Assembly: GCF_964355755.1 (NCBI RefSeq)
Contig: NC_092673.1
Span: 18,907,648-18,971,647 of the forward strand
Origin: Antedon mediterranea
Taxonomy: Eukaryota; Animalia; Echinodermata
Length of the DNA: 64,000 nucleotides
Reading direction: 5' to 3'
The notes beneath the pieces are model-generated. The model did not search any database, had not been told where the DNA came from, and saw only the letters and a program-made list of their open reading frames with translations. Of this stretch, positions 6,001 through 63,312 are shown piece by piece (positions within the stretch are counted from its first letter, which is position 1; each line of letters begins with the position of its first letter). The position numbers were made by a program, and so were the translations under genes.

Positions 6001-8881
6001 TAATCTATACATTGTTACAACATGCTGCTATTAGCTGTGATATCTTCATTCCTCTTACCAGTAGTAGTACTATCAGAATCATTATTGATAATCTATACAT
6101 TGTTACAACATGATGCTATTAGCTGTGATATCTTCATTCCTCTTACCAGTAGTAGTACTATCAGAATCATTATTGATAATCTATACATTGTTACAACATG
6201 CTGCTATTAGCTGTGATATCTTCATTCCTCTTACCAGTAGTAGTACTATCAGAATCATTATTGATAATCTATACATTGTTACAACATGCTGCTATTAGCT
6301 GTGGTATCTTCATTCCTCTTATCAGTAGTAGTACTATCAGAATCATTATTGATAATCTATACATTGTTACAACATGCTGCTATTAGCTGTGGTATCTTCA
6401 TTCCTCTTATCAGTAGTAGTACTATCAGAATCATTATTGATAATCTATACATCGTTACAACATGCTGCTATTTAGCTGTGATATCTTCACTCCTCTTAGT
6501 AGTAGTAGTACTATCAGAATCATTATTGATAATCTATACATTGTTATAACATGCTGCTATTAGCTGTGATATCTTCATTCCTCTTACCAGTAATAGTACT
6601 ATCAGAATCATTATTGATAATCTATACATTGTTACAACATGCTGCTATTAGCTGTGATATCTTTATTCCTCTTACCAGTAGTAGTACTATCAGAATCATT
6701 ATTGATAATCTATACATTGTTACAACATGCTGCTATTAGCTGTGATATCTTCATTCCTCTTACCAGTAGTAGTACTATCAGAATCATTATTGATAATCTA
6801 TACATTGTTACAACATGCTGTTATTAGCTGTGATATCTTAATTCCTCTTACCAGTAGTAGTACTATCAGAATCATTATTGATAATCTATACATTGTTACA
6901 ACATGCTGTTATTAGCTGTGATATATTCATTCCTCTTACCAGTAGTAGTACTATCAGAATCATTATTGATAATCTATACATTGTTACAACATGCTGCTAT
7001 TAGCTGTGATATCTTCATTCCTCTTACCAGTAGTAGTACTATCAGAATCATTATTGATAATCTATACATTATTACAACATGCTGCTATTAGCTGTGATAT
7101 CTTCATTCCTCTTACCAGTAGTAGTACTATCAGAATCATTATTGATAATCTATACATTGTTACAACATGCTGCTATTAGCTGTGGTATCTTCATTCCTCT
7201 TATCAGTAGTAGTACTATCAGAATCATTATTGATAATCTATACATTGTTACAACATGCTGCTATTAGCTGTGATATCTTCATTCCTCTTACCAGTAATAG
7301 TACTATCAGAATCATTATTGATAATCTATACATTGTTACAACATGCTGCTATTAGCTGTGATATCTTCATTCCTCTTACCAGTAATAGTACTATCAGAAT
7401 CATTATTGATAATCTATACATTGTTACAACATGCTGCTATTAGCTGTGATATCTTCATTCCTCTTACCAGTAATAGTACTATCAGAATCATTATTGATAA
7501 TCTATACATTGTTACAACATGCTGCTATTAGCTGTGATATCTTCATTCCTCTTACCAGTAATAGTACTATCAGAATCATTATTGATAATCTATACATTGT
7601 TACAACATGCTGCTATTAGCTGTGATATCTTCATTCCTCTTACCAGTAATAGTACTATCAGAATCATTATTGATAATCTATACATTGTTACAACATGCTG
7701 CTATTAGCTGTGATATCTTCATTCCTCTTACCAGTAGTAGTACTATCAGAATCATTATTGATAATCTATACATTGTTACAACATGCTGCTATTAGCTGTG
7801 ATATCTTCATTCCTCTTATCAGTAGTAGTACTATCATAATCATTATTGATAATCTATACATTGTTAAAACATGCTGCTATTAGCTGTGATATCTTCATTC
7901 CTCTTACCAGTAGTAGTACTATCAGAATCATTATTGATAATCTATACATTGTTACAACATGCTGCTATTAGCTGTGATATCTTCATTCCTCTTACCAGTA
8001 GTAGTACTATCAGAATCATTATTGATAATCTATACATTGTTACAACATGCTGCTATTAGCTGTGGTATCTTCATTCCTCTTATCAGTAGTAGTACTATCA
8101 GAATCATTATTGATAATCTATACATTGTTACAACATGCTGCTATTAGCTGTGGTATTTTCATTCCTCTTATCAGTAGTAATACTATCAGAATCATTATTG
8201 ATAATCTATACATTGTTACAACATGCTGCTATTAGCTGTGGTATCTTCATTCCTCTTATCAATAAGTAGTACTATCAGAATCATTATTGATAATCTATAC
8301 ATCGTTACAACATGCTGCTATTTAGCTGTGATATCTTCACTCCTCTTAGTAGTAATAGTACTATCAGAATCATTATTGATAATCTATACATTGTTATAAC
8401 ATGCTGCTATTAGCTGTGATATCTTCATTCCTCTTACCAGTAATAGTACTATCAGAATCATTATTGATAATCTATACATTGTTACAACATGCTGCTATTA
8501 GCTGTGATATCTTCATTCCTCTTACCAGTAGTAGTACTATCAGAATCATTATTGATAATCTATACATTGTTATAACATGCTGCTATTAGCTGTGATATCT
8601 TCATTCCTCTTACCAGTAATAGTACTATCAGAATCATTATTGATAATCTATACATTGTTACAACATGCTGCTATTAGCTGTGATATCTTCATTCCTCTTA
8701 CCAGTAGTAGTACTATCAGAATCATTATTTATAATCTATACATTGTTACAACATGCTGCTATTAGCTGTGATATCTTCATTCCTCTTACCAGTAGTAGTA
8801 CTATCAGAATCATTATTGATAATCTATACATTGTTACAACATGCTGCTATTAGGTGTGATATCTTCATTCCTCTTACCAGT
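1..8881. repeat. 88-bp tandem satellite array, about 100 copies, open at the window start; probably intronic in the upstream paralog
   Basis: Monomer TATTGATAATCTATACATTGTTACAACATGCTGCTATTAGCTGTGATATCTTCATTCCTCTTACCAGTAGTAGTACTATCAGAATCAT repeated head-to-tail, with occasional 87/89-bp variants; ORF starts recur every 88 bp. Confidence 0.99.
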
Positions 8882-9219
8882 AAAATCATTATTTATAATC
8901 TCTACTTAATTAAACACAATTTATGTTAGTGGCGGTTTTAATAAAATAAAAAATAAAATGATGAAGGAAATAACAGAATGTCACAAAACACTTCAATAGT
9001 TTATAAAGTACCTTGTTGCTTTTATGATAACAATTGAACATGAATAATGTGCCACTGTCATACAGTAGAACTATAACTCTAACTGTGTGTAGATTCTGGT
9101 GTCTAAATCATAAATTAGCCAAGTCTTATAATTTTCGTAAGATGGATGTTATACGTTGCAAAATGCTTTTTGGCGGTAAGAGTAATATTTTACCAACAAA
9201 CTATTTTTTTTTGTTTTAG

Positions 9220-24104: not shown

Positions 24105-24289
24105 ACCAGGTTGGAAGCCGTCCGGGCTCAGGTCTTGTAACAGGTAACAGAGGTAAGTATAAGGGTAGTAAGAATAATGGTAAGGATAATAAGAGTATTG
24201 ACAATCCCCGTGATAATGGTGATAAAATTAATAGAAATATTAGTCACATTAACACGGGTCAAGATAATACTAATAATTCTTTCATTACT

Positions 24290-26147: not shown

Positions 26148-26149
26148 TA

Positions 26150-41390: not shown

Positions 41391-41540
41391 TTTGATTGAA
41401 TTCGATTTGAAGGAAGTATAACAAAGAAGGAACAGTCTGGTGAAGAGAGAAAGTAGAAAACAATGAAGATAACTTGCATATAAAATAATGTATATCATAT
41501 GTTTATTTGTCTTTGCAGATCTCCACTTTGAGCAACAATA

Positions 41541-42428
41541 ATGGCAAGTAATGAAACAGTGTTAAACCCATATCCTACGATTTTAGAGATACCATGTAAT
41601 GATATTGAATTTGGAGAACTTATTGGAAGGGGTTCAACGTGCAGTGTGTTGAAAGGGGTTTGGAAAACTAAAAAAGATGTGCCAGTTGCAATTAAACGTC
41701 TCAACCATTTTCGAGAAATGGAAATTGTTACATTACGAAAAATTAAAGCTGACGAAGAAAAAAAACACATTGGTAGAAAGTTCATAATAGAGATTCTAGG
41801 GGTTAGTAAGAAGGATCATATGGATTGTATTGTAATGGAATATGTAGCAAATGGGTCATTATATGATTATTTAGGCCAGAAAAAACGAGAACAGCAGCAA
41901 CCTCTTGGGAATGACCAATTTTTCAACTGGACCCAGCAAGGTGCTCTTGCAATACAGTATCTTCATGAACTTGATATAATTCATCGAGATATCAAATCGC
42001 CAAATGTTTTAATTACTGATAAATATAATTTTAAACTTTGTGACTTTGGAATTTCCTGCATAAGTAATGAAACACTTTCAACAACATGTAGTGGGTCTCT
42101 TCCATGGATGGCTCCTGAAAGTTGTAAGGCTTTGTTTGAAAACTTTAGTTCAAAGATAAAGGTATCAAAGCGTTCAGACATATACTCTTATGGTGTTGTG
42201 ATATGGGAAATGTGGACTTGTAAAAAACCAAATGATGTGATGAAAGTTGATGGTATGTACCCGTTAGATGAAGGAACACCATCTAAGTTAAAGGATATGC
42301 TGCATAGTTGCTGGGATGTGGACAGAGGAAAAAGGCCAAGTATTCCAGATATACTAGAAACTATGGAGGAATTGGCTATTACAATGGAGGAATTGGCTAT
42401 TACAATGGAGGTTAAAGATTTTAAAGAG
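41541..42428 (+). CDS. Exon encoding the whole TKL-group (MLK/RIPK-like) kinase domain
   Basis: IGRGSTCSV, VAIK, MEY...GSL, HRDIKSPN, DFG, GSLPWMAPE, SDIYSYGVVIWEM, CW...RPS; acceptor TTGCAG ending at 41518 and donor GAG/GTATGT at 42428. Confidence 0.95.
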
Positions 42429-45400
42429 GTATGTTTCCTACAATCAAATTCAGTATCGTTTCACTCCAGCTGGACTAGAGATTTTTTCCCAATGAGAAAT
42501 ACAAACTTGTCAAATCTAGTTCACCCAAATCCTGTGTATTGGAAATGCAATTACTAGCTAATGCAAGTGATCCTTGCCTACTTAAGATCCCCTTAGTCAA
42601 ACTTAAAACTTCTGAACACTTCTTATTCTTATTATGATGACAGTCCACATAAATAGTATTTCTCTCCTTGAACATTATATTTCTTTATACAAACTGATTA
42701 GCTCTGATTTTTGATCATTTTCTCTGTAATTGTACTGTACTGTACTTGTCTTGTTTTTGTTATTTATTTATAAAAATGTTTTTTTTGTGTTTATATGGTC
42801 ATCTCGTGACAAGTACTTCTTGACATGTACTTCTAGTACTATAACTACTGCTTGCTTTCAGCTCCTAAATGAGTCATCCTCTTGGGACGTAGCGGGCTAA
42901 AGCAGCAGCGTGAAAAACATTGTTTTGATGAAATATAAAGTGCGTCTTATACATCAACGATAAAAAAATACTGATATTTTACTCTCAGTTAGGGAGTGCG
43001 TCTTATACACAGGTGCGACTTATACACCGAAATATACGGTATACTATTCCCCACAATATACTCCGATTGTTTATGGATATATTTAATTTGATCTTTAATA
43101 ATTTGCAAGATAATTTTTATTATGCTACTGTACCTCCACACGCGTGGTCCGGTCCAAAAATAAACAAAAAACTAAAATGGCTATTGCCACCAACGGCCAA
43201 CTTAGTTAAAACCAGGAAGTTGCAAGGTGATGACAACGTGAACCCGGAAATTACTTCTACCGCGTACGGTTGAAAATCTACCGATGAAATCAATAATTTT
43301 GTTTTAAAACCCTTTATAATATCTTCCTAAGATATAAATATGGAACAATATCGTAATAGTGAGAACTAATGTTATTAAATCTACGTTTCGGGAGGTAGGT
43401 ATTCAAGGCGGAGATTTGTCTTGAAGTTTTCCATTGTGCTTGCCTATGTCAGAATTAGTAAGCATAATTTATATAGATTCATAATAAACGAAACAAAAGA
43501 GTATAATAATGAATGGATAAGCTGCTTTAAAAAAGAGGTACTTTTAATTTTCTTATAGTCAGTAGAAGAGTATATTCCATCTGCTATTACTGCTCATGGT
43601 ACAGATGTTAAGGAAGCATATAATGAAGCATTGACTGAGGGATCTGACAAAATCAATCTTGGAATGCTTAAAGTAATTGGACAGGAAGGTGTGGGGAAAA
43701 CTTGCCTCATTAATGCCTGTCTTGGAAAAAAGTAATACATAGTTTAGGACAGTGAAATTGACAATATAAACTTTCCATCATTTCCGGCCTGTTAGATGTA
43801 CAATGAGTGGGAGTATGGAATGCAGCAGGGGCACAGGGGCAGATCCGGCAAATTGTAATGCAAAAGATAAGACATCAAATTGAGCTCAGCCCTTCATTTC
43901 ACTATTTTTAAGATTGATGATACAATTTTTGTCGCAATGTGAAAGAAGTAAATTGATGATACAAATTTTGATTTGCGATGTGAAGGAATTGCATCGATGA
44001 TATGAATTTTGTCACGATGTCCATGAAATGAATTGAGTAAAAAATATGCTGATGAAAAGTGATGAACAGATGCTTAATAATCATTACCATTAATACAGTA
44101 GTTAGATCAGATTGCCCAACCAATTTCTAACAATTAGGCCTATGCTACAATGGCTACTTGGTAGGGCTGGTTTATGAGGATCCACTATCAAGGCTAGCCC
44201 TCCAAGGCCTATTCCCTTTTAAGTCCGGCATAGCATAATATAATTCATATATACAAACATAATAGGCATATAATATTATTATTTTGTTCTTACGGTGAGG
44301 TTATAGCCCTGGGGTTTGTCGTTTTTATGTCCGTTTTAAGAAAATAAATAAAACACAAAGTTATGATAATATGAATGAGACATATGGAGAGGAGAGGTCC
44401 AGTACCAATGCTTTGTTAACCTTGTGGGGTTGACCCAGCAGAGATCGAGAGGATGACATATGCCGCCAATAGTTTTTACATTTCATTCAAATCTCGACAA
44501 AATTTGTATCACTCAACGCAAATTTATCCAATGCATTTTATTCACATATACACGAATCATAGTTACGTAAACAGCGTTCTATACGGGAGTGTTTTTTACA
44601 TTGAAAAAAGATAAAAATGGTATTTTAATTTTATTGATATTGCAGCGCAATTAAATAGCAATAACTGAATACAATTTATTAAAATATATCAACCATCTTA
44701 AATTGATTGAATTAACTAATCAATCAGTTTTTGTATTTATAAATCATAAATAAAGGTTAGAAATGTTTTGATTATTACATTATTATTATAAGTATGTATA
44801 TTTATTTATTTATTGTTCTTTATTGGTTTTCAATTACTCTATTTACTTTCAGATTTGAGAAAGACCATAACATTACAGATGGCATAGAAGTTATAAGGAC
44901 AGCAAGCAAAACATGGAATGAGGCTAAAGCTGATAGTGGTAAACATGAATACATTTAGCACTGTTGTCATTTATCTCCATTATAATAAACACAAACAGTC
45001 TCATATCCTCAAATACGCTATAAAAAATATGATATAAAATAATATACTGTAGTAGATAAAATACTGTATTTTAACCTGTTTCCGCTATAAGTAATTTTTT
45101 GGTGGTCCTGTTAAAATATTTTACCCAAACTGCCTTTCATGAGTTGCAATTCTTATTGACCTATGTAATAATAATAACTTTATTGTTTCTCTTTTATAAC
45201 AGAGGCACAATTCTCAAGAGATGTGCAACAACAAAAAATTAATATGGACTTATCTTAATACACAATCAAATACAAACATTATAAAATATTATTACATTAA
45301 AAAGTATATAAACATTAGGTTATAAAAATACATTCAATACATTTGAGTGAAAAGTAAAAGATTGTGTTATGGAAGGATATTATAAATTTTGTTGCGTTCT

Positions 45401-48400
45401 TTCCTTGCAGTTGTTAAAAATAATTTACAATATTTGTCCAAAGAGGTTACTTGCTAAAATAGTTAATATTGGTTATACATTGGATTTGATATTCTTCATG
45501 AATTTCTAGGTCGTCAAAAAAAAGGTGATATTTAAGTTCAGGTGAGCTTGACGTGAATAAGTCCCATATTTTATGCAAATCATTGTGGTATAGATCTTCT
45601 TTAAGTTGTTTAAATATTGAGTTTCTAATATTTATTTATCTAGTACAATTGAATACAAAATGATAAATTGTTTCTTTTTCACCACAATTACATAACAAAC
45701 ATGATCCTAAATTTTGTGGTGACCAAGCTTCCTTTCTTCCTTCGAGTGGTAATGAGTTAGAACGAGCTTTGAATTTTAGACTTGATGCATGTATACTAAG
45801 CATATTTTATCAATAAATGGAGTAAAGAATGTTGTAATTTTGCCAGGCCTTTCTACGACTCTTTTTCACCCACAAAAAAAAACCAGATTAATATAACTAA
45901 TTGTAACTTTAAATAGTTTATTAATAGGCAAAGGATTCATAAACAAGTTTATAATATGCATATGTTAGGTAAAAATGCACAATCGGCATCTTCTATCAAC
46001 TGGCAATGAGTCGCCAAGATGCGTCCTTTCTCCTGTATTGTTCAGCATATATACAAATGAGTTTAAAATTAAATTTGATGACTGCTGTTTAATTAAGTAT
46101 GCCGATGACAGTGTTATAACTGGATCTATTAGGATAATAATTAATTTAAAAAAAACTATAGACAGTCAATAAATGACTTTGCCACATCGTGTGGTAATAA
46201 CATCCTAACCTTAAATACAGATAAAACTAAAGAGATCATTTTTTACTTTAGACGCTCCAAAAGAACACTTCCAATTGCCATAACTACCAATGAACAAAAT
46301 ATTGAAATGGTCGAGGAATTTAAGTATCTTGGTGTTGAGCTTAATTAAAACCTTAACTGGGAAGCCAACTGCTTACGCGTCGTGACGTTTGCTCCCAAAC
46401 CCTTCCCATCATGCGTCGCCCACGGTATTTGCGATAAACCTTATTACAAAAAGAGCAAGCCAGAGAATTTTTTTCCTCCGAAACTTAAAAGCTTCAATAT
46501 CAGATGTGAAATTCTTAACCCTTTTTTGATAGCGTTATTAGAAGTGTTCTTTTATTTGGCTCAATTGTCTGGTTCTCGAATCTAACTCAAAGGGTAAAAA
46601 ACAAACTAAAATGGTAGAGTGGGCCAGTAAAATAATCGGCATTAGCCTTGAACCTCTTATGTCTCCAAATGAAAGGGACATCCTAAAAACTGTCAATAAA
46701 ATTTGTCAAGATCCCGATCACCCTGTAAATAAATTCTTTAAGCTTAGCCAAACTGGTAGACGGATCACTCTGAATCACAACACTAAACTAAATAGCAAGT
46801 TTGATCTCTGTAATTTGTTGTTTTTTTTGTTTTTTTATATATTTGTATATCGTTTGTATATTGTATGTATATCAAATGTAAATCAACCAACCAAATTTTA
46901 TTTGTACCTTGTTGTAAAAATGACAATAAATACTATTGTATCGTATCGTATAGTAGAATGGGGAACCTAATGTTACAAAAATGAATTATATGAGATTTTA
47001 ATGCTCAAATTGAGTGCGGAATTGATTTGGAATCCTTAGAACTATTAGACTTCATTGCAATTGGTGGCAATTTTTCCAGACCCTAATTTGCCTGCCATCG
47101 TGGAGCCTATTTTGGACCAATATGAACATACTTTTGCCAAATCATACAATATCATGACAAATAGATTTGACAATTTGTATTAATAGCACTGATGGCGGCC
47201 ATTGGATTCCAAGATTGATGCCATTAAAATTGATTTGAATCCTTATGACTATCAAAGCAATCTAACCACATACTACATTACCTTAAATAGTACTAGTAGA
47301 ATGAATTCCAATTTAGGACAATTTGTTCAACCGCATTATGAAATGAGTTGATAGTTCAGGGTATAGTCACGTATCTATATATTTTTTTCTCTACAGGTAA
47401 TCCTTCAAAACAGTATACAAAAATGGTCAAGAATAAATTGAGAGAAAGGAAAACTGTAAACGTAAGTCACTATAGTGTAATTGAAACATAAAATGAATAA
47501 AATAGTATCCACATGGATGTTCTACTAATACAAACCTGTCATTTAAGCTTCTTTTGTAAATGAACCAATGAGACATATGACTATTGAGCAGCAGTTTTAA
47601 TTATAAAAAAAAACATTTTTTTTTTTTCAATTCTTTTATAATTTGGTTTTGAAAGTTTTCTTCTGTTAAACGTAGATTATTTAAGTTTTGATAAACATTT
47701 AAATCTTTTATATCCGTTTACTCTTTTTTTATTTCAAGTGTCATGATGATAAACCACTTACATATGATTCCAATTACAAAAATGATGATTACAGAAATGA
47801 TGACGACAACAATGATGATTACAGAAATAATGGTGTGTAACTCCCTTTCTAATTTTGTTGATATCGTTGTCAATAATGAATAAATAAGTCCTAAAAGTAT
47901 GAGTCATATTCATATATCATCGCTATTTGAAATAATCAATTAGATTGTGTTTAAAAAAAATTTATTTTCCAATTTAAAGTAACTAAACTATTACTATGTA
48001 ATATAGTTTTTATGTGATCATATTTATATTTAACAATTATGTTGACAGTCAATTTTTTGTCGAAGTGAATAACTATTATGTGACATTAAAATGGCATATT
48101 CAACAAAAAATGTGTTCTAGAGTTGACCAGCCGATTCTGTAAGACCTTGAAAAATAGTCATTAGGGACTTTACGGAACAGGACGGGAAGCCACAGAATGC
48201 TAATGAATAATTTATAACTTTTTGTGGACAATAAAGTTGCCATTTTCCCGTTTACGGAGAATGACTAGAAATAATGTACATATAACCTTAAATATACAGT
48301 TCAAATTACACTTAAACATGGAATTTTTAAAACTCTAAATAATATTTGAATTTAATTTAATTGTTTAACGTTAAAAGCAATACATTTTGTGCGGTGTTTG

Positions 48401-51400
48401 AATGCGAGACCTCTAGCTAGGAAGGCTATGCTGTATCACCAGAGCCAAGCGATTCAGAAGGGCCATGCGCTGCGAGGCAGGGGAGGGAGAGAGATACTGC
48501 CGGTTGTCGTCTTTGCACAAGGGTATGTAACTAATAAAACAGCTGTGTCGCCTGTATATGATTTTACATTCTAGCGAACACAGGATGTCCGTTGTCTTCC
48601 CCTAACTGTCCTGTTTTGGCTGGGGGTGGCAGATGCCAAAATAAGCATGCTTGAATTTTACTTGTGTTTATGATAACCAACAAAATTTGTTTCCACTACA
48701 GGTACTGCTACAGCAGCTGAAGCTATTCCAATTGATATAGATAAACAGTTAGATAAAGATGTAATTCAGGATATTGTGCAAAATAAGGAGACGACTTTGG
48801 AAGAAACATTCAACATCTGGGACCATGGGGGACAATTGATATACCATGGTATACATCGTGTAAGGCTGATTCAAACCTATGGAATTATGCTTTCGTATCG
48901 TACGTGGCGTACAACTTCATGTCTGAACCAGGAAAAGATTAGTGAAAGCCACCTCTTTATGACACTGACCTTTCGTTCGTTCTGAAGGTACAAGATTAGT
49001 GTACAGATGCTTATGATACGATCAATGATTCTGACCTCCAACCAATCAAATTTACTCTTGCATGCCAGATGTTGGCTAAATCTGTTTCACTTCAGTTTGT
49101 AACAAAAGCGTTAATCAATTCAAAACACTTTGCTGTTTCTAACTACTGTGAAGTAGCTTTGTGTCTAGAGGTATGAATGCCAGGCTAGTGATGTGGAGGT
49201 CGTGGATTCGAGTCCCACCCAAGAATTACTTAAATACAAATTATGACAGAGTGGGGAAAATTATCTAACCAATTGCTAAGTATAATATGACCTTGCTTGC
49301 GATACGAAAGCATTTCTCCATGTGTCTGAACCTACCCTTAATTTCAAAATATGTAGTAGAACAGAACATTGATATTTTATTGAATAAGATCTGGATAAGA
49401 TCTTTACTTCAAAAACATTAAACTCCACATCAGCCAGTTAAAAGGAAATGTTACTAACATAACTGTATGGCTATGGTACAGTATGGTATGCCTTTCTTGC
49501 CTATTCAGTAATCACAAATTTCTTTCCATGGTAACTGCTTATATAATTGTTAATATTAAACATTTTCCATGCCTATATTCCAACAAAACAAATCAAGTAT
49601 TTTCAGTAACTCTTAGTTCTTGATTTTTGTTTTCTATCATCACTGATTGTAGCCACAATATTATATGAATTTGTTATAGAGAATTGCTCTGATAAAAGGA
49701 TTAACAGAAATAGATTTTAGATAGTTTTTATTTATATTAGGGTCCACCTACAAATTCAAATAATATTAACGAATATTAATCAGCCAATATTTAAATAAAA
49801 AAATAATTTTTGCAGATCTTCATGACATCACGATCACTTTACATTGTAGTGTTTGATCTCAGTAAACCCTTGGATGATCTTGCTACTTTCATTAATTCTA
49901 CTGGAGTAAGTATTTCTAGAGCATGGCGGCAGTAAGGTATTGTGATTGAACAAGTCTTCTAATTTATAAAAACAAAAACAGTTTGACTATTATAAAAGAT
50001 TTTATTTCATACCTTCCAGATAAGATGTAGTAATGAACATTTTTTTTAAACTAACCATTTCAAGTTTAACTTTAAGATGTTTTGAAGTGTTCTTATAATT
50101 TTTTTTTCAGAGAACATGTCAACATCATTGGACCAATCTCCAGTTCATATTATCTTACATCCTGTCAGTTTATTCTCATAGTCGTATTGTGGAAGAGGAT
50201 GAGGAGAATGAAGTTGACAAACCAACTATCCTTATTGTGGGTACACATAAGGGGAAGCTTGGCTGGACTGAAGAACAGCAAAATGATGAGGTTAATACTT
50301 CTTTTGTTTCTGTATTATTATAAATAGCCACAACCAAAGATACATTGCAGTTGTAACTGTTTTTAAATATTACTTCAAATAAATTACAAAATTGACACAT
50401 TCTTATTATGAAATAGGCGTAAACTATTTTAAAATTATTTACAAACAGGCAGAAAAGGTGTTTAAAATTATTCGAGATGTTCTTAAAACAAAACAATATG
50501 GAAATCATGTCTACCACAAATATTTTGCCATTGAAAACAGTCAACCAACCACAGATAAGAGCTTTGGTTATCTCAAACAAGTTATTGATAAACTTATGAA
50601 AGCATTAGAACAGCCTTTTCCTTTAAAGTGGATGCGTTTTCGATGTGATCTACATGATCTAAGAGGAAAAAAACAGCCCTCCTTTTCTTTGTGTCCTTTA
50701 AAAGAGGTAAATGTTATTTGTTTTGTTTGGTTCTTTTTTTCAGAAAAGAACATTTTTGGAAATATTAAGTCGCAAGTATCTATCAAGTATCTAAAAAAAA
50801 ATTAACGTTTCTAAATATAAGTACCCTTTAATTAAAAAATGTCCATAGCCTACTGTAGCCAATTAGATTACAATATCCAACATCATATTTTCATCTCAGA
50901 TATTTGCTGCCATTGTTTTATTTATAAATTGTGTGTTTGAAAATACTGAGGTAATTAGCCATTGAAATTCAATATTTCAAACTATGTTTTCATGTAATAC
51001 CCACATGTTACAAAAATAAATATGATTTCATATTTTGTTATTTAATTCTGAATAATACTAATTATTATTTCTTTTAGATCAAAATTCTGACAAGTAAGAA
51101 TGGTATTGTTGACGAAAAAAACAAATCAGTCCTGCTTAACTTGTATGATCTTGGTGAAATTGTTTACATGCCTGACAACAAATTATTAAGGGATAAAGTC
51201 ATGCTAGATCCGTTGAGGCTGGTTGAAATTGTCACCAAATTTGTAACTGTAGTTTCCCCAAAATATCCCGTAAGTAGACTCATGTAATGTCTTGCATTGT
51301 AAAAACATGTTACCGTAGTATAATTACTCCTGTTCTGTGTAATTTATTATTCCTTAGCAACAAATTTGCCTTTAGTAATATTTGATAGAGATGCTTAACA

Positions 51401-54400
51401 TTTTCTATAGATAAAATAAAAAGTATGCTGTAAGGCATCATTTGCAATTTACTGTAATTTTTTTACAAGTTTTAATTATTTCACTTTTAATATTCTGCTT
51501 TCAATCTATTATAATTGAAGCACTATAAAAGTGAATAGCACAGCAGCAAACTAACTTGGAGTAATTTCACAGTTTAACCCTTTCACTGCGTGTATTACCG
51601 GGTATAAACATGTCTTTGAACTCCATATAAGCATCATTACCGGGTACACTATATTTTTGATAAACTTAAATATATTTGCAATGTTTTAAAACTATTTTCC
51701 TGCACTACATGCAACCTCTATATTTTTTTATATCGTCGTATCGTACCATTTTCTTACTCCAAACCGTAGACCAACCTTTTACCCACCACAAAAATATTTA
51801 CAAAATTATCTCATTTAGTATGTTTTTGCAATTTATTAAAAATCACCTGTCTCTCAATGTTATGCACAGTGAAAGGGTTAAACCACGATACTGTATTATA
51901 CCAACATATGGTTCATCTATATTCTATTCTGTATCTATTTCCGTCATCCTCACAACTGTTATAAACACAAAATATGATGCATAATTGATAGTTGGTGTTT
52001 TTTTTAGTCCGCTAAATATAGAAGATCTTTTGATAAACTTGACAAAGGCATACTGGAAGAAGACTTGTTGCGAAAATTATGGAAAGATAGTAAAGTTGAC
52101 AACGGAAAGAATTTTGAGTTCCTTGTAGCACTGATGATTCAATTAGGTTTCATTTGTGAGAGGAAGACAACCAGCAGACACGATGTGGCAAGTACATCTT
52201 GTTTCTTTAAGCTTTCATTTTATACATGTAAGATTTGGGAGAAAAAGTATTATTTTAATAGTTTGGATTTTTAATGTTCAAAGTTTAAATAAACTTTCTA
52301 ATGAAAATGTCTACATGACAGAGTATCTTTAGTTTGCTTTAAATAATTTAAATGGCATTGTTACAAATTAACAATTTCAGAAATCAGTTGGAAAACAATC
52401 CTTTTTTGTGCCACTGCGACTTGCTATCAAGACAAGACAAGTGGGACAATTACCTGATGATTCACAATCTATCAGCAGGCCTATCTATTACGACTTTGAG
52501 GGATATCTGCCAGACGTGTTGTTTCCGTATTTAATTATTGAATTCCTTAACAAATTTCAAAAGGAAGGAGTTGACCCAATACTCGCATGTAATTATGCAG
52601 AACTTTACCTCAACGAAAATCATCATGTGATTTTGTCTCTTGACAAATTTATTACTAAGAAGGATGAGCGAAAGTTCTTGTTAAAGGTAATAAATAATCT
52701 CTATAATGAATGTTCAATATATATCACTAAATTATGAAAGTTAAATATTGTTGCTTAGTCTTTCCCAGAATTTACTTTAAATGCATCTAAATTTTGATAA
52801 CAAAGCATCACATCTATTTTTACTTTCTAGATGGCTATTAAAAGAACAGATTCTTTTGACGAAACGAGTAAAGAGGAACCTTCAGCTGAAGCATGTAAAT
52901 TGGTATGTTATGTTACCAGTTATATTATATATCTGTTTGGACGTACTTTATCAAAATACACATAGAACAATTGAGGAGAAATTTACACATGTTTCTTTAA
53001 ACTATGCTTTTAGATCAGTAAATATGTTAAAAATCTGTTGCAAATTCTCTAACTGTGTCTCTCCAGATAGGTATAGGTAGGTTTCCTTAAAAGCTTCACA
53101 ATGTATAGTGATTGGTACCAAGGATATCAAATTCTACTAGGAAAAATGTAAAATCATTTGAATTTCATTCACTGGATATAACTTATAATTTATCAAAAGT
53201 TACATCTATGTTTTCTTTTCTTTTTTTAATTGAATTGAAAAAAATATAATCCCAATAAAGTTTTCAGATTTACACCATAAATCTGAAAACATTGCCTAAC
53301 TTTGTGAGCTACTGCATCATTGATGCTTTCATATTTGCTGGTGTGTGTCTTAAATTGTTATCAATCAACATTAAATTTATATCTTTAGGTTTTGTCAACA
53401 GTTGAGAAGTCATTCGAGCATTCTAAAGATGGTGGTAGAAGGGGGATTCCATTCAAGAGATGCATTCCTTGTCAGTGTAGTGATCAATTAGACAAGAAGC
53501 ATTTTCAAATTCTTGAAGATTTCACATGTGGAAAGTTGATGTGCACCGAAACTGGCAAGTCTGTTACGATGGATGTCACATGTTACAAGCGGCTGTTTGG
53601 ATGTAAGAGTCATTAAATTTATTTATTTTTATTAAGTACATTTTCATTAATACGCTACTTCTTCATGAAGGACTCTCACTCATCCCTACAGTACAGGAAA
53701 CTGAAAAAAGGGCTATTTCTGTTCTATAAACAACTTGTGATCTATTTGTGCAAAAAGTGACATGTTTAAATAATTATAGAATAGAAAAAGAGGATACTGT
53801 ACCTTATTTGAAAATAGACATATTTGATAATACTCTTCCAGTAGTAGTACAACATAATCATTATTGATAATCTATACATTGTTACAACATGCTGCTATTA
53901 GCTGTGATATCTTCATCCCTCTTACCAGTAGTAGTACTATCAGAATCATTATTGATAATCTATACATTGTTACAACATGCTCCTATTAGCTGTGATATCT
54001 TCATTCCTCTTACCAGTAGTAGTACTATCAGAATCATTATTGATAATCTATACATTGTTACAACATGCTGCTATTAGCTGTGATATCTTCATTCCTCTTA
54101 CCAGTAATAGTACTATCAGAATCATTATTGATAATCTATACATTGTTACAACATGCTGCTATTAGCTGTGATATCTTTATTCCTCTTAGTAGTAGTAGTA
54201 CTATCAGAATCATTATGGATAATCTATACATTGTTACAACATGCTGCTATTAGCTGTGATATCTTCATTCCTCTTACCAGTAGTAGTACTATCAGAATCA
54301 TTATTGATAATCTATACATTGTTACAACATGCTGCTATTAGCTGTGATATCTTCATTCCTCTTACCAGTAATAGTACTATCAGAATCATTATTGATAATC

Positions 54401-57400
54401 TGTACATTGTTACAACATGCTGCTATTAGCTGTGATATCTTCATTCCTCTTACCAGTAGTAGTACTATCAGAATGATTATTGATAATCTATACATTGTTA
54501 TAACATGCTGCTATTAGCTGTGATATCTTCATTCCTCTTACCAGTAGTACTGTAGTAGTATCAGAATCATTCTTGATAATCTATACATTGTTACAACATG
54601 CTGCTATTAGCTGTGATATCTTCATTCCTCTTACCAGTAGTAGTACTATCAGAATCATTATTGATAATCTATACATTGTTACAACATGCTGCTATTAGCT
54701 GTGATATCTTCATTCCTCTTACCAGTAGTACTGTAGTAGTATCAGAATCATTATTGATAATCTATACATTGTTACAACATGCTGCTATTAGCTGTGATAT
54801 CTTCATTCCTCTTACCAGTAGTAGTACTATCAGAATCATTATTGATAATCTATACATTGTTACAACATGCTGTTATTAGCTGTGATATCTTCATTCCTCT
54901 TACCAGTAGTAGTACTATCAGAATCATTATTGATAATCTATACATTGTTACAACATGCTGCTATTAGCTGTGATATCTTCATTCCTCTTACCAGTAGTAG
55001 TAGTACTATCAGAATCATTATTGATAATCTATACATTGTTACAACATGCTGCTATTAGCTGTGATACCTTCATTCCTCTTACCAGTAGTAGTACTATCAG
55101 AATCATTATTGATAATCTATACATTGTTACAACATGCTGCTATTAGCTGTGATATCTTCATTCCTCTTACCAGTAGTAGTACTATCATAATCATTATTGA
55201 TAATCTATACATTGTTACAACATGCTGCTATTAGCTGTGATACCTTCATTCCTCTTACCAGTAGTAGTACTATCAGAATCATTATTGATAATCTATACAT
55301 TGTTACAACATGCTGCTATTAGCTGTGATATCTTCATTCCTCTTACCAGTAGTAGTACTATCAGAATCATTATTGATAATCTATACATTGTTACAACATG
55401 CTGCTATTAGCTGTGATATCTTCATTCCTCTTACCAGTAGTAGTAGGCTACTATCAGAATCATTATTGATAATCTATACATTGTTACAACATGCTGCTAT
55501 TAGCTGTGATATCTTCATTCCTCTTACCAGTAGTAGTACTATCAGAATCATTATTGATAATCTATACATTGTTACAACATGTTGCTATTAGCTGTGATAT
55601 CTTCATTCCTCTTACCAGTAGTAGTACTATCAGAATCATTATTGATAATCTATACATTGTTACAACATGCTGCTATTGGCTGTGATATCTTCATTCCTCA
55701 TACCAGTAGTAGTACTATCAGAATCATTATTGATAATCTATACATTGTTACAACATGTTGCTATTAGCTGTGATATCTTCATTCCTCTTACCAGTAGTAG
55801 TACTATCAGAATCATTATTGATAATCTATACATTGTTACAACATGCTGCTATTAGCTGTGATATCTTCATTCCTCTTACCAGTAGTAGTACTATCAGAAT
55901 CATTATTGATAATCTATACATTGTTACAACATGCTGTTATTAGCTGTGATATCTTCATTCCTCTTACCAGTAGTAGTACTATCAGAATCATTATTGATAA
56001 TCTATACATTGTTACAACATGCTGCTATTAGCTGTGATATCTTCATTCCTCTTACCAGTAGTAGTACTATCATAATCATTATTGATAATCTATACATTGT
56101 TACAACATGCTGCTATTAGCTGTGATACCTTCATTCCTCTTACCAGTAGTAGTACTATCAGAATCATTATTGATAATCTATACATTGTTACAACATGCTG
56201 CTATTAGCTGTGATATCTTCATTCCTCTTACCAGTAGTAGTACTATCAGAATCATTATTGATAATCTATACATTGTTACAACATGCTGCTATTAGCTGTG
56301 ATATCTTCATTCCTCTTACCAGTAGTAGTAGGCTACTATCAGAATCATTATTGATAATCTATACATTGTTACAACATGCTGCTATTAGCTGTGATATCTT
56401 CATTCCTCTTACCAGTAGTAGTACTATCAGAATCATTATTGATAATCTATACATTGTTACAACATGTTGCTATTAGCTGTGATATCTTCATTCCTCTTAC
56501 CAGTAGTAGTACTATCAGAATCATTATTGATAATCTATACATTGTTACAACATGCTGCTATTGGCTGTGATATCTTCATTCCTCATACCAGTAGTAGTAC
56601 TATCAGAATCATTATTGATAATCTATACATTGTTACAACATGTTGCTATTAGCTGTGATATCTTCATTCCTCTTACCAGTAGTAGTACTATCAGAATCAT
56701 TATTGATAATCTATACATTGTTACAACATGCTGCTATTAGCTGTGATATCTTCATTCCTCTTACCAGTAGTAGTACTATCAGAATCATTATTGATAATCT
56801 ATACATTGTTACAAAATGCTGTTATTAGCTGTGATATCTTCATTCCTCTTACCAGTAGTAGTACTATCAGAATCATTATTGATAATCTATACATTGTTAC
56901 AACATGCTGCTATTAGCTGTGATATCTTCATTCCTCTTACCAGTAGTAGTTCTATCAGAATCATTATTGATAATCTATACATTGTTACAACATGCTGCTA
57001 TTAGCTGTGATATCTTCATTCCTCTTACCAGTAGTAGTACTATCAGAATCATTATTGATAATCTATACATTGTTACAACATGCTGTTATTAGCTGTGATA
57101 TCTTCATTCCTCTTACCAGTAGTAGTACTATCAGAATCATTATTGATAATCTATACATTGTTACAACATGCTGCTATTAGCTGTGATATCTTCATTCCTC
57201 TTACCAGTAGTAGTTCTATCAGAATCATTATTGATAATCTATACATTGTTACAACATGCTGCTATTAGCTGTGATATCTTCATTCCTCTTACCAGTAGTA
57301 GTACTATCAGAATCATTATTGATAATCTATACATTGTTACAACATGCTGCTATTAGCTGTGATATCTTCATTCCTCTTACCAGTAGTACTGTAGTAGTAT

Positions 57401-60400
57401 CAGAATCATTATTGATAATCTATACATTGTTTACAACATGCTGCTATTAGCTGTGTTATCTTCATTCCTCTTGTAGTACTATCAGAATCATTATTGATAA
57501 TCTATACATTGTTACAACATGTTGCTATTAGCTGTGATATCTTTATTCCTCTTACCAGTAGTAATACTATCATAATCATAATAATCTATACATTGTTTAC
57601 AACATGCTGCTATTAGCTGTGATATCTTCATTCTTCTTACCAGTAGTAGTACTATCAGAATCATTATTGATAATCTATACATTGTTACAACATGCTGCTA
57701 TTAGCTGTGATATCTTCATTCCTCTTACCAGTAGTAGTACTATTAGAATCATTATTGATAATCTATACATTGTTACAACATGCTGCTATTAGCTGTGATA
57801 TCTTCATTCCTCTTACCAGTAGTAGTACTATCAGAATCATTATTGATAATCTATACATTGTTACAACATGCTGCTATTAGCTGTGATATATTCATTCCTC
57901 TTAATACCAGTAGTAGTACTATCAGAATCATTATTGATACTCTATACATTGTTACAACATGCTGCTATTAGCTGTGATATCTTCATTCCTCTTACCAGTA
58001 GTAGTACAACATAATCATTATTGATAATCTATACATTGTTACAACATGCTGCTATTAGCTGTGATATCTTCATTCCTCTTACCAGTAGTAGTACTATCAG
58101 AATCATTATTGATAATCTATACATTGTTACAACATGCTGCTATTAGCTGTGATATCTTCATTCTTCTTACCAGTAGTAGTACTATCAGAATCATTATTGA
58201 TAATCTATACATTGTTACAACATGCTGCTATTAGCTGTGTTATCTTCATTCCTCTTACTAGTAGTAGTACTATCAGAATCATTATTGATAATCTATACAT
58301 TGTTACAACATGTTGCTATTAGCTGTGATATCTTCATTCCTCTTACCAGTAGTAGTACTATCAGAATCATTCTTGATAATCTATACATTGTTACAACATG
58401 CTGCTATTAGCTGTGATATCTTCATTCCTCTTACCAGTAGTAGTACTATTAGAATCATTATTGATAATCTATACATTGTTACAACATGCTGCTATTAGCT
58501 GTGATATCTTCATTCCTTTTACCAGTAGTAGTACTATCAGAATCATTATTGATAATCTATACATTGTTACAACATGCTGCTATTAGCTGTGATATCTTCA
58601 TTCCTCTTACCAGTAGTAGTACTATCAGAATCATTATTGATAATCTATACATTGTTACAACATGCTGCTATTAGCTGTGATATCTTCATTCCTCTTACCA
58701 GTAGTAGTACTATCAGAATCATTATTGATAATCTATACATTGTTACAACATGCTGCTATTAGCTGTGATATCTTCATTCCTCTTACCAGTAGTAGTACTA
58801 TCAGAATCATTATTGATAATCTATACATTGTTACAACATGCTGCTATTAGCTGTGATATCTTCATTCCTCTTACCAGTAGTAGTACTATCAGAATCATTA
58901 TTGATAATCTATACATTGTTACAACATGCTGCTATTAGCTGTGATATCTTCATTCCTCTTACCAGTTATAGTAGTAGTATCAGAATCATAATAATCTATA
59001 CATTGTTCACAACATGCTGCTATTAGCTGTGATATCTTCATTCCTCTTACCAGTAGTAGTACTATCAGAATCATTATTGATAATCTATACATTGTTACAA
59101 CATGCTGCTATTAGCTGTGATATCTTCATTCCTCTTACCAGTAGTAGTACTATCAGAATCATTATTGATAATCTATACATTGTTACAACATGCTGCTATT
59201 AGCTGTGATATCTTCATTCTTCTTACCAGTAGTAGTACTATCAGAATCATTATTGATAATCTATACATTGTTACAACATGCTGCTATTAGCTGTGTTATC
59301 TTCATTCCTCTTACCAGTAGTAGTACTATTAGAATCATTATTGATAATCTATACATTGTTACAACATGCTGCTATTAGCTGTGATATCTTCATTCCTCTT
59401 ACCAGTAGTAGTACTATCAGAATCATTATTGATAATCTATACATTGTTACAACATGCTGCTATTAGCTGTGATATCTTCATTCCTCTTACCAGTAGTAGT
59501 ACTATCAGAATCATTATTGATAATCTATACATTGTTACAACATGCTGCTATTAGCTGTGATATCTTCATTCCTCTTACCAGTTATAGTAGTAGTATCAGA
59601 ATCATAATAATCTATACATTGTTACAACATGCTGCTATTAGCTGTGATATCTTCATTCCTCTTACCAGTAGTAGTACTATCAGAATCATTATTGATAATC
59701 TATACATTGTTACAACATGCTGCTATTAGCTGTGATATCTTCATTCTTCTTACCAGTAGTAGTACTATCAGAATCATTATTGATAATCTATACATTGTTA
59801 CAACATGCTGCTATTAGCTGTGTTATCTTCATTCCTCTTACTAGTAGTAGTACTATCAGAATCATTATTGATAATCTATACATTGTTACAACATGTTGCT
59901 ATTAGGTGTGATATCTTCATTCCTCTTACCAGTAGTAGTACTATCAGAATAATTCTTGATAATCTATACATTGTTACAACATGCTGCTATTAGCTGTGAT
60001 ATCTTCATTCCTCTTACCAGTAGTAGTACTATCAGAATCATTATTGATAATCTATACATTGTTACAACATGCTGCTATTAGCTGTGATATCTTCATTCTT
60101 CTTACCAGTAGTAGTACTATCAGAATCATTATTGATAATCTATACATTGTTACAACATGCTGCTATTAGCTGTGATATCTTCATTCCTCTTACCAGTAGT
60201 AGTACTATCAGAATGATTATTGATAATCTATACATTGTTACAACATGCTGCTATTAGCTGTGATATCTTCATTCCTCTTACCAGTAGTAGTACTATCAAA
60301 ATCATTATTGATAATCTATACATTGTTACAACATGTTGCTATTAGGTGTGATATCTTCATTCCTCTTACCAGTAGTAGTACTATCAGAATCATTCTTGAT

Positions 60401-63103
60401 AATCTATACATTGTTACAACATGCTGCTATTAGCTGTGATATCTTCATTCCTCTTACCAGTAGTAGTACTATCAGAATCATTATTGATAATCTATACATT
60501 GTTACAACATGCTGCTATTAGCTGTGATATCTTCATTCTTCTTACCAGTAGTAGTACTATCAGAATCATTATTGATAATCTATACATTGTTACAACATGC
60601 TGCTATTAGCTGTGATATCTTCATTCCTCTTACCAGTAGTAGTACTATCAGAATGATTATTGATAATCTATACATTGTTACAACATGCTGCTATTAGCTG
60701 TGATATCTTCATTCCTCTTACCAGTAGTAGTACTATCAGAATCATTATTGATAATCTATACATTGTTACAACATGCTGCTATTAGCTGTGATATCTTCAT
60801 TCCTCTTACCAGTAGTAGTACTATCATAATCATTATTGATAATCTATACATTGTTACAACATGCTGTTATTAGCTGTGATATCTTCATTCCTCTTACCAG
60901 TAGTAGTACTATCAGAATCATTATTGATAATCTATACATTGTTACAACATGCTGCTATTAGCTGTGATATCTTTATTCCTCTTACCAGTAGTAGTACTAT
61001 CAGAATCATTATTGATAATCTATACATTGTTACAACATGCTGCTATTAGCTGTGATATCTTCATTCCTCTTACCAGTAGTAGTACTATCGGAATCATTAT
61101 TGATAATCTATACATTGTTATAACATGCTGCTATTAGCTGTGATATCTTCATTCCTCTTACCAGTAGTAGTACTATCAGAATCATTATTGATAATCTATA
61201 CATTGTTACAACATGCTGCTATTAGCTGTGATATCTTCATTCCTCTTACCAGTAGTAGTACTATCAATCATTATTGATAATCTATACATTGTTACAACAT
61301 GCTGCTATTAGCTGTGATATCTTCATTCCTCTTACCAGTAGTAGTACTATCAGAATCATTATTGATAATATATATATTGTTATAACATGTTGCTATTAGC
61401 TGTGATATCTTCATTCCTCCTACCAATTTATAATTTATTTAATAATGTCAAGATAGTTAAAATTCAAACAAATGTTAATGTTGGAGGTTCAATGTTTAAA
61501 TAGGCCATATATTTATAAAAACATATTCTTATATTTTAATAGGTAATATATAATTTTATCTTTCAAAAACTTGTTTGTGTATTAATAGTTTTAAGTATTA
61601 AAATATTTTTTTTAATGAAAATACTTACGTGGATAAGGTTTGGATTATCACTACAATGCAAGAACGTAGACACAACATAAGTAATTTGACCAATGACAAG
61701 TGAAGGATTGAATAGGTCTCATATTAGCTGTGTATTGCAACCTATATCCTTGTATTGCATCCATGTGAGATGCTCAAGTGATTATAGTTAAACAATGTAT
61801 GCAGTGGAACTGTCAATATTCCATGTGAGACTATAGTTAAACAATGTATGCAGTGGAACTGTCAATATTCCATGTGAGACTATAGTTAAACAATGTATGC
61901 AGTGGAACTGTCAATATTCCACCACAGACTGTACAACGGCATTGCATTATGTACTATAAACATTTTCCAATAGTAAATGTACATCTTATTTTGATCATTT
62001 TTAGGCAGTAGTGATGAGGACCAAAATGAAGGCACATCATCCAGTCACCAATCTCAGCCAAGAGAAGGTAAGTTACTAGTAGATAAAGATTATGATATGA
62101 AAAAGTCTCTCAACCTATGAAAACACATGGTGTATTGCTAACTTGACGGCCTAACAAGGGTGTCCACTTACAGGATGTTCAACGGTACAATTAATATTTT
62201 TTTTTTATTTGCAGATGAATTTGGCCCATCGGAAAGAAAAAAAAGAAAAAAAGATCAAGGTAATTGATTGAAATATATATCGAATAATAAGTAGAGTGAA
62301 TATAGAAAATAAAAACAATTTAAATATTTCAAACTAGTTTTGATCAAAATTGGGGGAAAGAATAATGATCATCGTCAAACTAATTTTCTGTCATTTTATT
62401 TGCAGGAAACACAATGGCAGATTCTGAATCTTTGAACAGATTTCGAGACCTTAAATCTGATCTTAATAGATCCTTTGATGATGAAAGATACTATATGATA
62501 AGATTCCTCTTATTTGATGACTTAAGGTTATGTTATGTTACAAATCCAGATTTTATTGGACATGACTTACTCAATGCACTTGACGACAAAGGTGTAATCT
62601 CACCAACTAATGTTAGCATTCTTTTGGAGATTACAAAGCTATCGGAAATCAAGAAAGCTGAAGATATTGTAATACAATATATGAAAGACAACAAAGTTCA
62701 GGACAGGTCTGATACAAAATTGTCATCTTACAGAAAGCGACTGTTTACAGCTATGTTAGATATTCACTCAGATGCATTCAAAAGAATTATTTCAAACTAT
62801 GGATTGAGAAAACATAACTTCTCCAATGTTTGGGATGCAGTTCTCCATCTGGAGATTGAGGCAGAATTAGCAGATGATCCAGACAAAATAAAAAGTTTTG
62901 CTCGTCATCTAGGCCAAAAAGCAAGAGACATACTACTTGGTAATGATATGTTAATAACTTCTTATTTAAGAGTTTATTGACTCGTTCATTCTTTAACCTG
63001 TTTACATTATAATTTAACCAAAATTAAATTTGGTTTAATTTTAATCATTAAAATTAGTAATGTCATTAACTGGTTATTTATAGGCAATAGTGAGAAGAAA
63101 TAA
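41541..63103 (+). CDS. Multi-exon ROCO-family gene: TKL kinase - Roc GTPase - COR - linker - tandem DED-like, about 1,200 aa. Exons: 41541-42428, 43559-43731, 44853-44938, 47397-47461, 47739-47832, 48702-48859, 49816-49905, 50111-50290, 50449-50706, 51078-51269, 52008-52187, 52381-52686, 52831-52902, 53389-53602, 62005-62067, 62215-62259, 62406-62939, 63084-63103
   Basis: Exons joined by hand at AG/GT sites (one possibly GC) with matching phases give a continuous frame with kinase, Roc G1-G5, COR and DED-like motifs in order; the last exon is uncertain. Confidence 0.8.
43559..50706 (+). CDS. Roc GTPase domain exons and start of COR
   Basis: AYNEALTEG..KVIGQEGVGKT (G1), TDGIE (G2), IWDHGGQLIYHGIHRIFMT (G3), LYIVVFDLS, ILIVGTHKG (G4), FAIENS (G5), then PLKWMRF. 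Confidence 0.88.
45167..45860 (-). mobile_element. 3' fragment of a non-LTR retrotransposon (intronic)
   Basis: Minus strand LKFKARSNSLPL...CLLCNCGEKETIYHFVFNC (CCHC finger typical of LINE C-termini), then AATAAA and a (TTA)n tail. Confidence 0.7.
45975..46945 (+). mobile_element. Degenerate LINE RT fragment (intronic)
   Basis: SPRCVLSPVLFSIYTN, IKYADD, LTLNTDKTKEIIF, FKYLGV; AATAAA and a (TATCG)n tail near 46926-46950. Confidence 0.75.
49150..49225 (+). mobile_element. tRNA-like SINE head (intronic)
   Basis: TGTGTCTAGAGG (A-box-like) and GATTCGAGTCCC (B-box-like); no complete cloverleaf. Confidence 0.4.
51078..53602 (+). CDS. COR domain exons
   Basis: LLNLYDLGEIVYMP...LRDKVMLDPLRLVE, KGILEEDLLRKLW, LMIQLGFI, FFVPLRL, LPDVLFPYLI, C-terminal CIPCQC...H...C. 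Confidence 0.8.
51578..51877. mobile_element. piggyBac-like MITE (intronic)
   Basis: TTAA|CCCTTTCACTG ... CAGTGAAAGGG|TTAA. Confidence 0.85.
53830..61425. repeat. 88-bp tandem satellite array, about 86 copies, inside the intron between the last COR exon and the linker/DED exons
   Basis: Same monomer and orientation as 1-8881; lies between the donor after 53602 and the acceptor before 62005. Confidence 0.99.
61782..61921. repeat. 49-bp tandem repeat, about 3 copies
   Basis: TATAGTTAAACAATGTATGCAGTGGAACTGTCAATATTCCATGTGAGAC repeated. Confidence 0.9.
62406..62939 (+). CDS. Exon encoding a tandem death-effector-domain-like pair
   Basis: FRDLKSDL...MIRFLL...DLLNALDDKGVISPTNVSILLEI...IVIQY fits DED1; LSSYRKRLF...WDAVLHLE resembles the caspase-8/cFLIP DED2 start (ISxYRxxL); phase 1-1 exon. 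Confidence 0.72.
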
Positions 63104-63312
63104 GACAGCATCATCAAGTCACCAATGTGAACCAAGTGAAGGTAAATTATTCATAAATATTATGCAAGATTGGGAGATAAACATAAAAATTACATGATTT
63201 TAGTATGATTATTGACAAGATGATAATGACCAAGTAGTAATGAGGATTACTATGAAATTTATGATTTAAAACACAATGAATATATTATGTTGATTATTAG
63301 TATAGGAAGAAC

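Follow-up and report, generated by a model that had tools for sequence, protein, structure and literature searches.

DAPK1 carries a CAMK-class kinase, a calmodulin-binding segment, ankyrin repeats and one C-terminal death domain, and the RIP kinases are death-fold-tailed kinases that are switched on by clustering. ROCO biology is known mostly from LRRK2 and DAPK1, and the control exerted by Roc-COR on a kinase placed before or after it is unsettled. The definition of a ROCO protein is given in PMC4104024, where the DAPK1 kinase is placed at the extreme N-terminus, ahead of Roc-COR; in LRRK1, LRRK2 and the Dictyostelium Roco kinases the kinase follows COR and leucine-rich repeats (LRRs) precede Roc (PMC4104024; PMC11378527). 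Here, a gene at 41541..63103 on the forward strand of a 64,000-nucleotide stretch of the crinoid Antedon mediterranea (contig NC_092673.1; the whole stretch is referred to as the window) is described, the predicted product of which carries a TKL kinase, Roc, COR and a tandem death effector domain (DED), in this order.

All statements on published work refer to excerpts of the papers cited. 17 ROCOs have been described in Trichoplax, with CARD, death, TPR, LRR and AAA domains (PMC4104024), and up to forty domain combinations in animals, with N-terminal kinase and death domains found in various organisms (PMC11378527). Brown-algal ROCOs are exon-shuffled, LRR being the sole extra domain mentioned in the excerpt (PMC11378527). 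Bacterial AP-GTPase-COR proteins have variable ends (PMC8195603) and TIR-ROCO proteins occur in Aplysia (PMC9334734); ROCO is not mentioned in the excerpt of PMC6321704. A literature search found no paper on kinase-Roc-COR-tandem-DED proteins or on crinoid ROCOs; a figure or the supplements of PMC11378527 could list the combination.

Gene model and predicted domains

Joined, the 18 exons form a coding sequence of 3,618 nt that comprises 1,205 uninterrupted codons followed by the stop at 63101-63103. The splicing was predicted from sequence. Each of the 17 introns has a usable pair of splice sites. Of these introns, 16 follow the GT-AG rule, and for intron 11 GC-AG was modelled, where a GT option (52192/52388) would likewise preserve the frame. 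The GC content is 0.36 in exons versus 0.31 in introns. Exons 7-14 are each 89-100% identical to A. mediterranea proteins and the gene model is therefore not a product of chance; over residues 304-1205 it is 75% identical to the protein P0130. The exon 1 ATG is preceded by an acceptor AG (41517-41518) and by an in-frame stop. The least certain exon of the model is exon 5. The features of the gene are as follows.

41541..42428 (+): exon 1, coding part; complete TKL kinase domain, residues 1-296, with a phase-0 donor at its end
42429..43558 (+): intron 1, 1,130 nt; inferred fusion junction, with unique ends and high-copy repeats mid-intron
43559..43731 (+): exon 2; Roc alpha0 helix and G1 P-loop, residues 297-354; 67% identical to the closest relatives
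44853..44938 (+): exon 3; Roc G2 (T362); 82% identical to P0136
47397..47461 (+): exon 4; start of the G2-G3 insert; 82% identical to P0131
47739..47832 (+): exon 5; acidic low-complexity insert, required by phase; 52% identical to P0138
48702..48859 (+): exon 6; Roc G3, Roc E 0.015; 75% identical to relatives
49816..49905 (+): exon 7; Roc; 97% identical to P0135
50111..50290 (+): exon 8; Roc G4 (THKG, without Asp); 95% identical to P0127
50449..50706 (+): exon 9; Roc G5 region and start of COR-A; 94% identical to P0132
51078..51269 (+): exon 10; COR-A, PF16095 E 7e-5; 94% identical to relatives
52008..52187 (+): exon 11; COR, GC donor modelled; 92% identical to P0131
52381..52686 (+): exon 12; COR; 94% identical to P0127
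52831..52902 (+): exon 13; COR; 100% identical to P0131 and P0127
53389..53602 (+): exon 14; COR end, cysteine-rich; 90% identical to P0124
53833..61425 (no strand): 88-bp satellite in intron 14, 86 copies, separating the GTPase core from the effector end
62005..62067 (+): exon 15; linker, phase 1-1; 86% identical to P0132
62215..62259 (+): exon 16; basic linker, phase 1-1; 60% identical to P0124
62406..62939 (+): exon 17; tandem DED in one phase 1-1 exon, residues 1022-1199
63084..63103 (+): exon 18, coding part including the stop; continues to a donor at 63142

The kinase exon matched Pfam PF07714 (PK_Tyr_Ser-Thr) with an E-value of 7e-45. The motifs VAIK (residues 49-52), HRD (148-150), DFG (168-170) and APE (191-193) and the alphaC Glu are present, and K52, D150, N155, D168 and E193 are invariant in an alignment of 40 kinases. 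In a sequence comparison with solved structures, the nearest relatives after one EGFR chain are ZAK/MAP3K20 and TAK1; RIPK2 stood at rank 28 in Foldseek among near-ties, and the kinase trees were built without RIPK rows. In the AlphaFold2 model (mean confidence score pLDDT 87.8) most of helix alphaG is gone and a three-residue turn is found in its place. The stretch from E223 to W258 comprises 36 residues (35 in P0001) versus 44-50 in 38 of the 39 other aligned kinases, so that the domain is 8-14 residues short across alphaG; insertions follow alphaC and APE. The kinase is thus predicted to be complete at its active site but atypical. At the end of the kinase exon (42363-42411), a 21-bp in-frame tandem duplication extends the last helix; it is absent from P0001 and P0171.

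The kinase exon is very probably fused by splicing to the Roc exons. Scored with a matrix derived from the other 16 introns, the exon 1 donor at 42429 ranked third among 647 GT sites, the acceptor at 43558 was the best-scoring AG within intron 1, and both are in phase 0. A tblastn search of the window for the linker, death domain and VLIG part that follow the kinase in its relatives found none of them (best E 1.4), and exon 2 is therefore the nearest compatible partner. Contigs from one sample, which may be the source of the assembly, bridge 42330-42895 and 43347-43601, with the repeat-rich middle of intron 1 unspanned. Contig depth over exons 1 and 2 exceeds that over the unique intron, depth not being a measure of copy number. 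Among the joints listed for the contigs of five sequencing runs none fits any of the 17 introns, which is neutral on expression: runs X2-X5 cover introns as DNA would, and X1, a run guessed to be RNA, makes up a small share.

Roc spans exons 2-9 and COR exons 9-14. When aligned to a bacterial Roco structure, Roc shows G1 (GQEGVGKT, 337-344), G2 (T362) and G3 (DHGG, 476-479), with an insert of roughly 100 residues between G2 and G3. Single-exon Pfam matches were weak (Roc E 0.015-0.079, COR-A E 7e-5); P0130 passes the Pfam cut-offs for both Roc and COR-A. The top Protein Data Bank matches were Roco structures, Roc resembling LRRK2 and bacterial Roco. With Roc directly before COR, the predicted protein is a ROCO and not a DAPK1 or LRRK member. 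G4 reads THKG and lacks the usual Asp for guanine specificity. Across 57 stored Roc stretches, Gly occupies the last G4 position 19 times, Asp 14 times, Glu eight times and Asn seven times; this position is variable within the crinoid ROCO clade.

Exon 17 gave a weak Pfam DED match (E 0.008) and an AlphaFold2 model with a pLDDT of 89.8. Among 48,161 chains, the best structural match was the caspase-8 tandem DED 4zbw (Z 15.3, r.m.s. deviation 2.5, 154 aligned residues, 17% identity), followed by further caspase-8 chains and vFLIP/cFLIP; the best death domain reached Z 8.9. Foldseek also returned a tandem DED (E 4.7e-4). A predicted complex of three tandem DED copies, made without an alignment, scored 0.00, which counts neither for nor against assembly. 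The stop lies six codons beyond exon 17, with no caspase or caspase-like domain after it. This stop is shared with five A. mediterranea paralogs, which terminate at the same place, and is therefore old. It overlaps a shifted frame (63099-63141) that matches a linker of P0122, a protein that continues into a further DED-containing module, and the donor at 63142 sits 38 nt past the stop; a third module was likely lost through an old frameshift.

An earlier note on this DNA had proposed 18 phase-compatible exons in one frame, a TKL kinase with VAIK, HRD, DFG and APE motifs, and a C-terminal tandem DED, all of which were borne out by the frame, the PF07714 match, the ZAK/TAK1 relatives and invariant residues, and the caspase-8-type fold. 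Its DAPK-like domain order with a TKL kinase likewise holds in the predicted spliced model. From its description of Roc G1-G5 and COR, the G1, G2, G3 and COR assignments stand and G4 is found without Asp. The GTP gating of the kinase and the coupling to FADD/caspase-8-type filaments that it suggested are putative.

Ancestry of the parts and related architectures

In a tree of 22 rows with at least 400 aligned residues (eight shorter matches were excluded), the Roc-COR core groups with P0127, P0130, P0131 and P0132 at 100/100 support; the identity is about 90%. None of these four proteins is modelled with a kinase, two of them being truncated before G1, and their C-terminal ends are just 36-55% identical to that of the focal gene. 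The close core relatives are all crinoid (28 of 28): 24 are from A. mediterranea, of which 18 lie on a single contig, and four from Anneissia japonica, which agrees with the lineage-expanded family suggested in the earlier note. Before the same Roc helix, relatives carry ANK, Macro, TAZ/KIX, DED, Death or kinase modules.

The kinase has other kin. It is 76% identical to P0001 (XP_071948948.1), an A. mediterranea kinase fused to a VLIG/URGCP GTPase that maps to the same contig as the ROCO cluster, and 61% identical to P0171 (XP_033106209.1) from Anneissia, a kinase with one death domain. These three kinases form a 100/100 clade and have the alphaG deletion in common. The order of P0171, kinase then death domain, is RIPK1-like. 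The focal gene diverges from both immediately behind the VKDF motif that closes exon 1; P0001 and P0171 share the next linker, which leads into the VLIG/URGCP GTPase or the single death domain. No paper on a kinase-VLIG/URGCP fusion was found in the literature search.

Two other accounts of the kinase were rejected. Recent decay as the origin of the alphaG deletion is excluded because P0001 and P0171 have the same deletion, and fast evolution of the focal kinase alone does not fit end branches of 0.14 versus 0.11 in the kinase tree. Since the kin of the core (P0127, P0130, P0131 and P0132) differ from those of the kinase (P0001 and P0171), the gene is best described as a chimera. Judged from these trees, kinase and core are of separate ancestry and the kinase is a single portable exon common to different scaffolds; we infer that the donor was a kinase-linker-death-domain gene, the kinase exon of which moved at least twice. 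Among the exon 1 differences listed from contigs of the same organism, 16 of the 24 that change an amino acid carry the P0001 residue, pointing to a second close kinase copy in that organism.

Architectures were compared using a kinase plus Roc-COR profile run against 1.84 billion representatives. The best 150 of 1,928 matches (E <=1e-30) were taken, which is not a census; many of them are multi-kinase proteins, and all 20 matches that were looked up are echinoderm. Among 297 stored proteins, Roc or COR was found in 65 (33 with G1). A tandem DED, counted with our own profile, is present in 21 of these and a kinase in two, and none of the 65 combines both. The kinase-bearing pair consists of XP_071959976.1, with the kinase before Roc, and a brittle-star protein with the kinase after COR. 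XP_071959976.1 (P0141) is an A. mediterranea RefSeq model with the order kinase-Roc-COR-DD-DD, DD denoting a death domain; for it the ESM Atlas gave just leads below 0.9. Its kinase is 33% identical to the focal kinase and clusters with stand-alone kinases of its own contig. A common origin of the two kinases as sisters was rejected by the approximately unbiased test (p 1.8e-37), the grouping having been named after a quick tree had been seen. As the two kinases are unrelated, the DAPK-like order arose twice within one crinoid group. Kinase-Roc-COR-tandem-DED is one product of an end-shuffling family, a kinase-first, death-fold-last relative of which is already in RefSeq.

Other echinoderm ROCOs (P0282, P0187, P0211, P0217, P0265) include arrangements with four tandem-DED pairs before Roc, DED-Macro-Roc-COR-Death, Roc-COR-HEPN and Macro-Roc-COR.

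Proposed function and alternative readings

We tentatively favour a chimeric ROCO, likely formed by exon shuffling, the product of which is likely an oligomerisation-gated immune or cell-death signalling kinase. The kinase exon of a kinase-linker-death-domain gene would have entered the variable N-terminal slot of the family through a phase-0 intron. By analogy, nucleotide-dependent pairing of Roc-COR units (a model cited in PMC4104024) and DED stacking would bring kinases together for trans-activation. The tandem DED could, again by analogy, recruit FADD-like or caspase-8/cFLIP-like partners; the titles of the matched structures describe tandem DEDs stacking with FADD and caspase-8. In the simplest reading, the kinase would have been transferred between clustering scaffolds, with ROCO assembly activating the kinase and recruiting the DED partners. 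The near-identical cores with and without a kinase are natural pairs for testing the switch on a newly added kinase.

Several points weigh against this reading. Most of the docking helix alphaG is missing, though the kinase relatives share the deletion, and the THKG form of G4 also counts against it. In DAPK1, loss of nucleotide binding leaves kinase activity undiminished (PMC4104024). The exon 1-exon 2 splice is a prediction from sequence; the unspliced kinase frame reads 42 codons into intron 1 before a stop, and two AATAAA signals lie in this intron, in AT-rich DNA. P0133, P0134 and P0157 are modelled as starting at a Met just before G1, so that a kinase-free form is possible. The intron positions of P0001 and P0171 were taken from the end of similarity, both being automatic gene models.

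The main rival to an oligomerisation-gated kinase is an integrated bait, in which the kinase would mainly mimic host TKL/MAP3K kinases and its modification or binding by a pathogen would cause Roc-COR to release the tandem DED and trigger cell death. We regard this as doubtful. It is consistent with the sensor-like modules (ANK, Macro, TAZ/KIX) that otherwise fill the N-terminal slot and with the presence of the same kinase on a second immune-type GTPase. Of the two features of an integrated decoy, copying from a host kinase gene is supported by the ancestry data, and targeting by a pathogen is putative. Identity to P0001 is lowest in the activation segment (62%), the post-APE loop (59%) and the alphaG region (54%) and reaches 90-93% in the beta1-3, alphaC and alphaF regions, but activation-loop variation is common to most kinase families and the catalytic residues are all retained in the three homologues. 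Similarly, 24 of the 27 best-supported contig differences in exon 1 change an amino acid, but these 27 are the best-supported rows of listings with 614 and 464 further rows, are raw counts and mix paralogs. A literature search on animal kinase decoys found no paper.

A broader reading is unlikely, in which feather stars would have a GTPase-based, NLR-like receptor kit: the portable kinase exon, taken from a kinase-death-domain gene and grafted on both Roc-COR-tandem DED and VLIG, would be bait guarding host TKL/MAP3K signalling and firing a caspase-8-type DED filament, with the homogenised intronic satellite helping to swap effector ends. If true, a ROCO scaffold in an animal would carry an integrated kinase decoy.

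It is quite improbable that two neighbours have been joined in the model, the kinase exon being either a short gene of its own or a stranded copy, with the Roc-COR-tandem-DED gene starting by itself. The four closest Roc-COR relatives are modelled without a kinase, relatives are able to start just before G1, stand-alone kinases of a sister subfamily exist (P0173, P0179) and no contig spans the repeats in the middle of intron 1. Against this, a strong donor sits at the homologous exon end, the phases match and the best acceptor is 1.1 kb away; no alternative partner exon was found within the window, and an independent kinase-first ROCO exists (XP_071959976.1). A near-neutral young chimera of little or no function, produced by recombination in a tandem cluster rich in repeats, would account for the mosaic exon ancestry, the satellite and transposon load, the 21-bp in-frame duplication at the exon 1 end and the frame-shifted remnant of a longer exon under the stop, but is hardly probable for a frame of 1,205 codons that has remained free of stops and frameshifts despite a divergence of 24% (kinase) and 40% (tandem DED) from its closest relatives, and of which the terminal stop is old and common to five A. 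mediterranea paralogs.

Surrounding sequence and comparison with known systems

A second paralog nearby had also been proposed in the earlier note. An open four-exon tail (9093-11686) is indeed present; it is the tail alone, Roc-COR lying outside the window. The features upstream of the focal gene are as follows.

1..8882 (no strand): 88-bp satellite of the upstream paralog, about 101 copies, the array being cut by the window edge
9093-9175, 9220-9258, 10212-10724 (tandem DED) and 11679-11686 (stop) (+): upstream paralog tail, 213 codons and a stop, open

The tail is 65% identical to P0134/P0140, and its tandem DED shares 37% identity with that of the focal gene. Exon 9093-9175 matches the segment of P0121 that follows two hydrophobic, likely membrane-spanning helices; the upstream paralog may therefore be membrane-anchored between COR and the tandem DED. 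In both genes the satellite occupies an intron upstream of the DED exon. Its identity is 97.9% between the arrays versus 97.9-98.1% within them, although the nearby DED exons are just 37% identical. As the arrays are equally alike between and within genes, this homogenisation suggests recent exchange and a possible route of end swapping, a lead to be read with the qualification that the satellite may be genome-wide.

Minisatellites lie between the paralogs at 28434-30102 (89 bp), 33730-34653 (130 bp) and 36318-36579 (37 bp). A Penelope-type retroelement open reading frame (ORF) of 678 residues with reverse transcriptase and GIY-YIG is located at 15797-17830 (+), with matching terminal sequence on the opposite strand at 15760-15830 and 17750-17830. 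A fragmented Gypsy-like long terminal repeat retroelement at 22030-26164 (+) encodes a helix-hairpin-helix protein, a zinc-knuckle gag, protease and reverse transcriptase; a helix-hairpin-helix ORF ahead of the gag is unusual. The Cys/His-rich frame at 63878-63997 (+), which presumably resembles a PHD finger, is likely a retroelement ORF1 or belongs to the next gene.

Like the focal protein, XP_071959976.1 has a TKL kinase directly before a Roc-COR of the same crinoid clade and death folds at its end; unlike it, it has HKD/DVG in place of HRD/DFG, a Roc-COR of another branch and two death domains instead of DEDs. XP_071948948.1 and XP_033106209.1 share the kinase module, including its alphaG deletion and the point at which it ends, but there the kinase continues into the shared linker and then the VLIG/URGCP GTPase or death domain. 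The kinase-first order occurs twice in one crinoid group with unrelated kinases, and the brittle-star relative has its kinase after COR.

As in DAPK1, the focal kinase is N-terminal to Roc-COR, the order being convergent. Unlike that of DAPK1, it is a TKL kinase that abuts Roc without room for repeats, and the protein ends in a tandem DED (Z 15.3 versus 8.9 for the best death domain), whereas DAPK1 ends in a death domain. LRRK1, LRRK2 and the Dictyostelium Roco kinases likewise combine Roc-COR with a TKL-class kinase, but the focal protein lacks LRR and WD40, and its kinase precedes Roc and is nearest, among solved structures, to ZAK and TAK1. Orthology to DAPK1 or LRRK was rejected on kinase class or order. 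The two-DED fold is that of caspase-8, cFLIP and vFLIP, placed here at the C-terminus without a caspase domain, so that a ROCO and a DED pair of the caspase-8 type are directly joined in this gene.

With the Trichoplax, brown-algal and bacterial sets, as described in the excerpts cited above, the crinoid family shares lineage expansion, clustering, variable ends on a Roc-COR core and a proposed immune role; these excerpts name no kinase-Roc-COR-DED protein. The locus adds to the signs that echinoderm ROCO GTPases are modular intracellular immune receptors. By analogy, the focal protein would work most like a DAPK1- or RIPK-style death-fold kinase on a ROCO scaffold.

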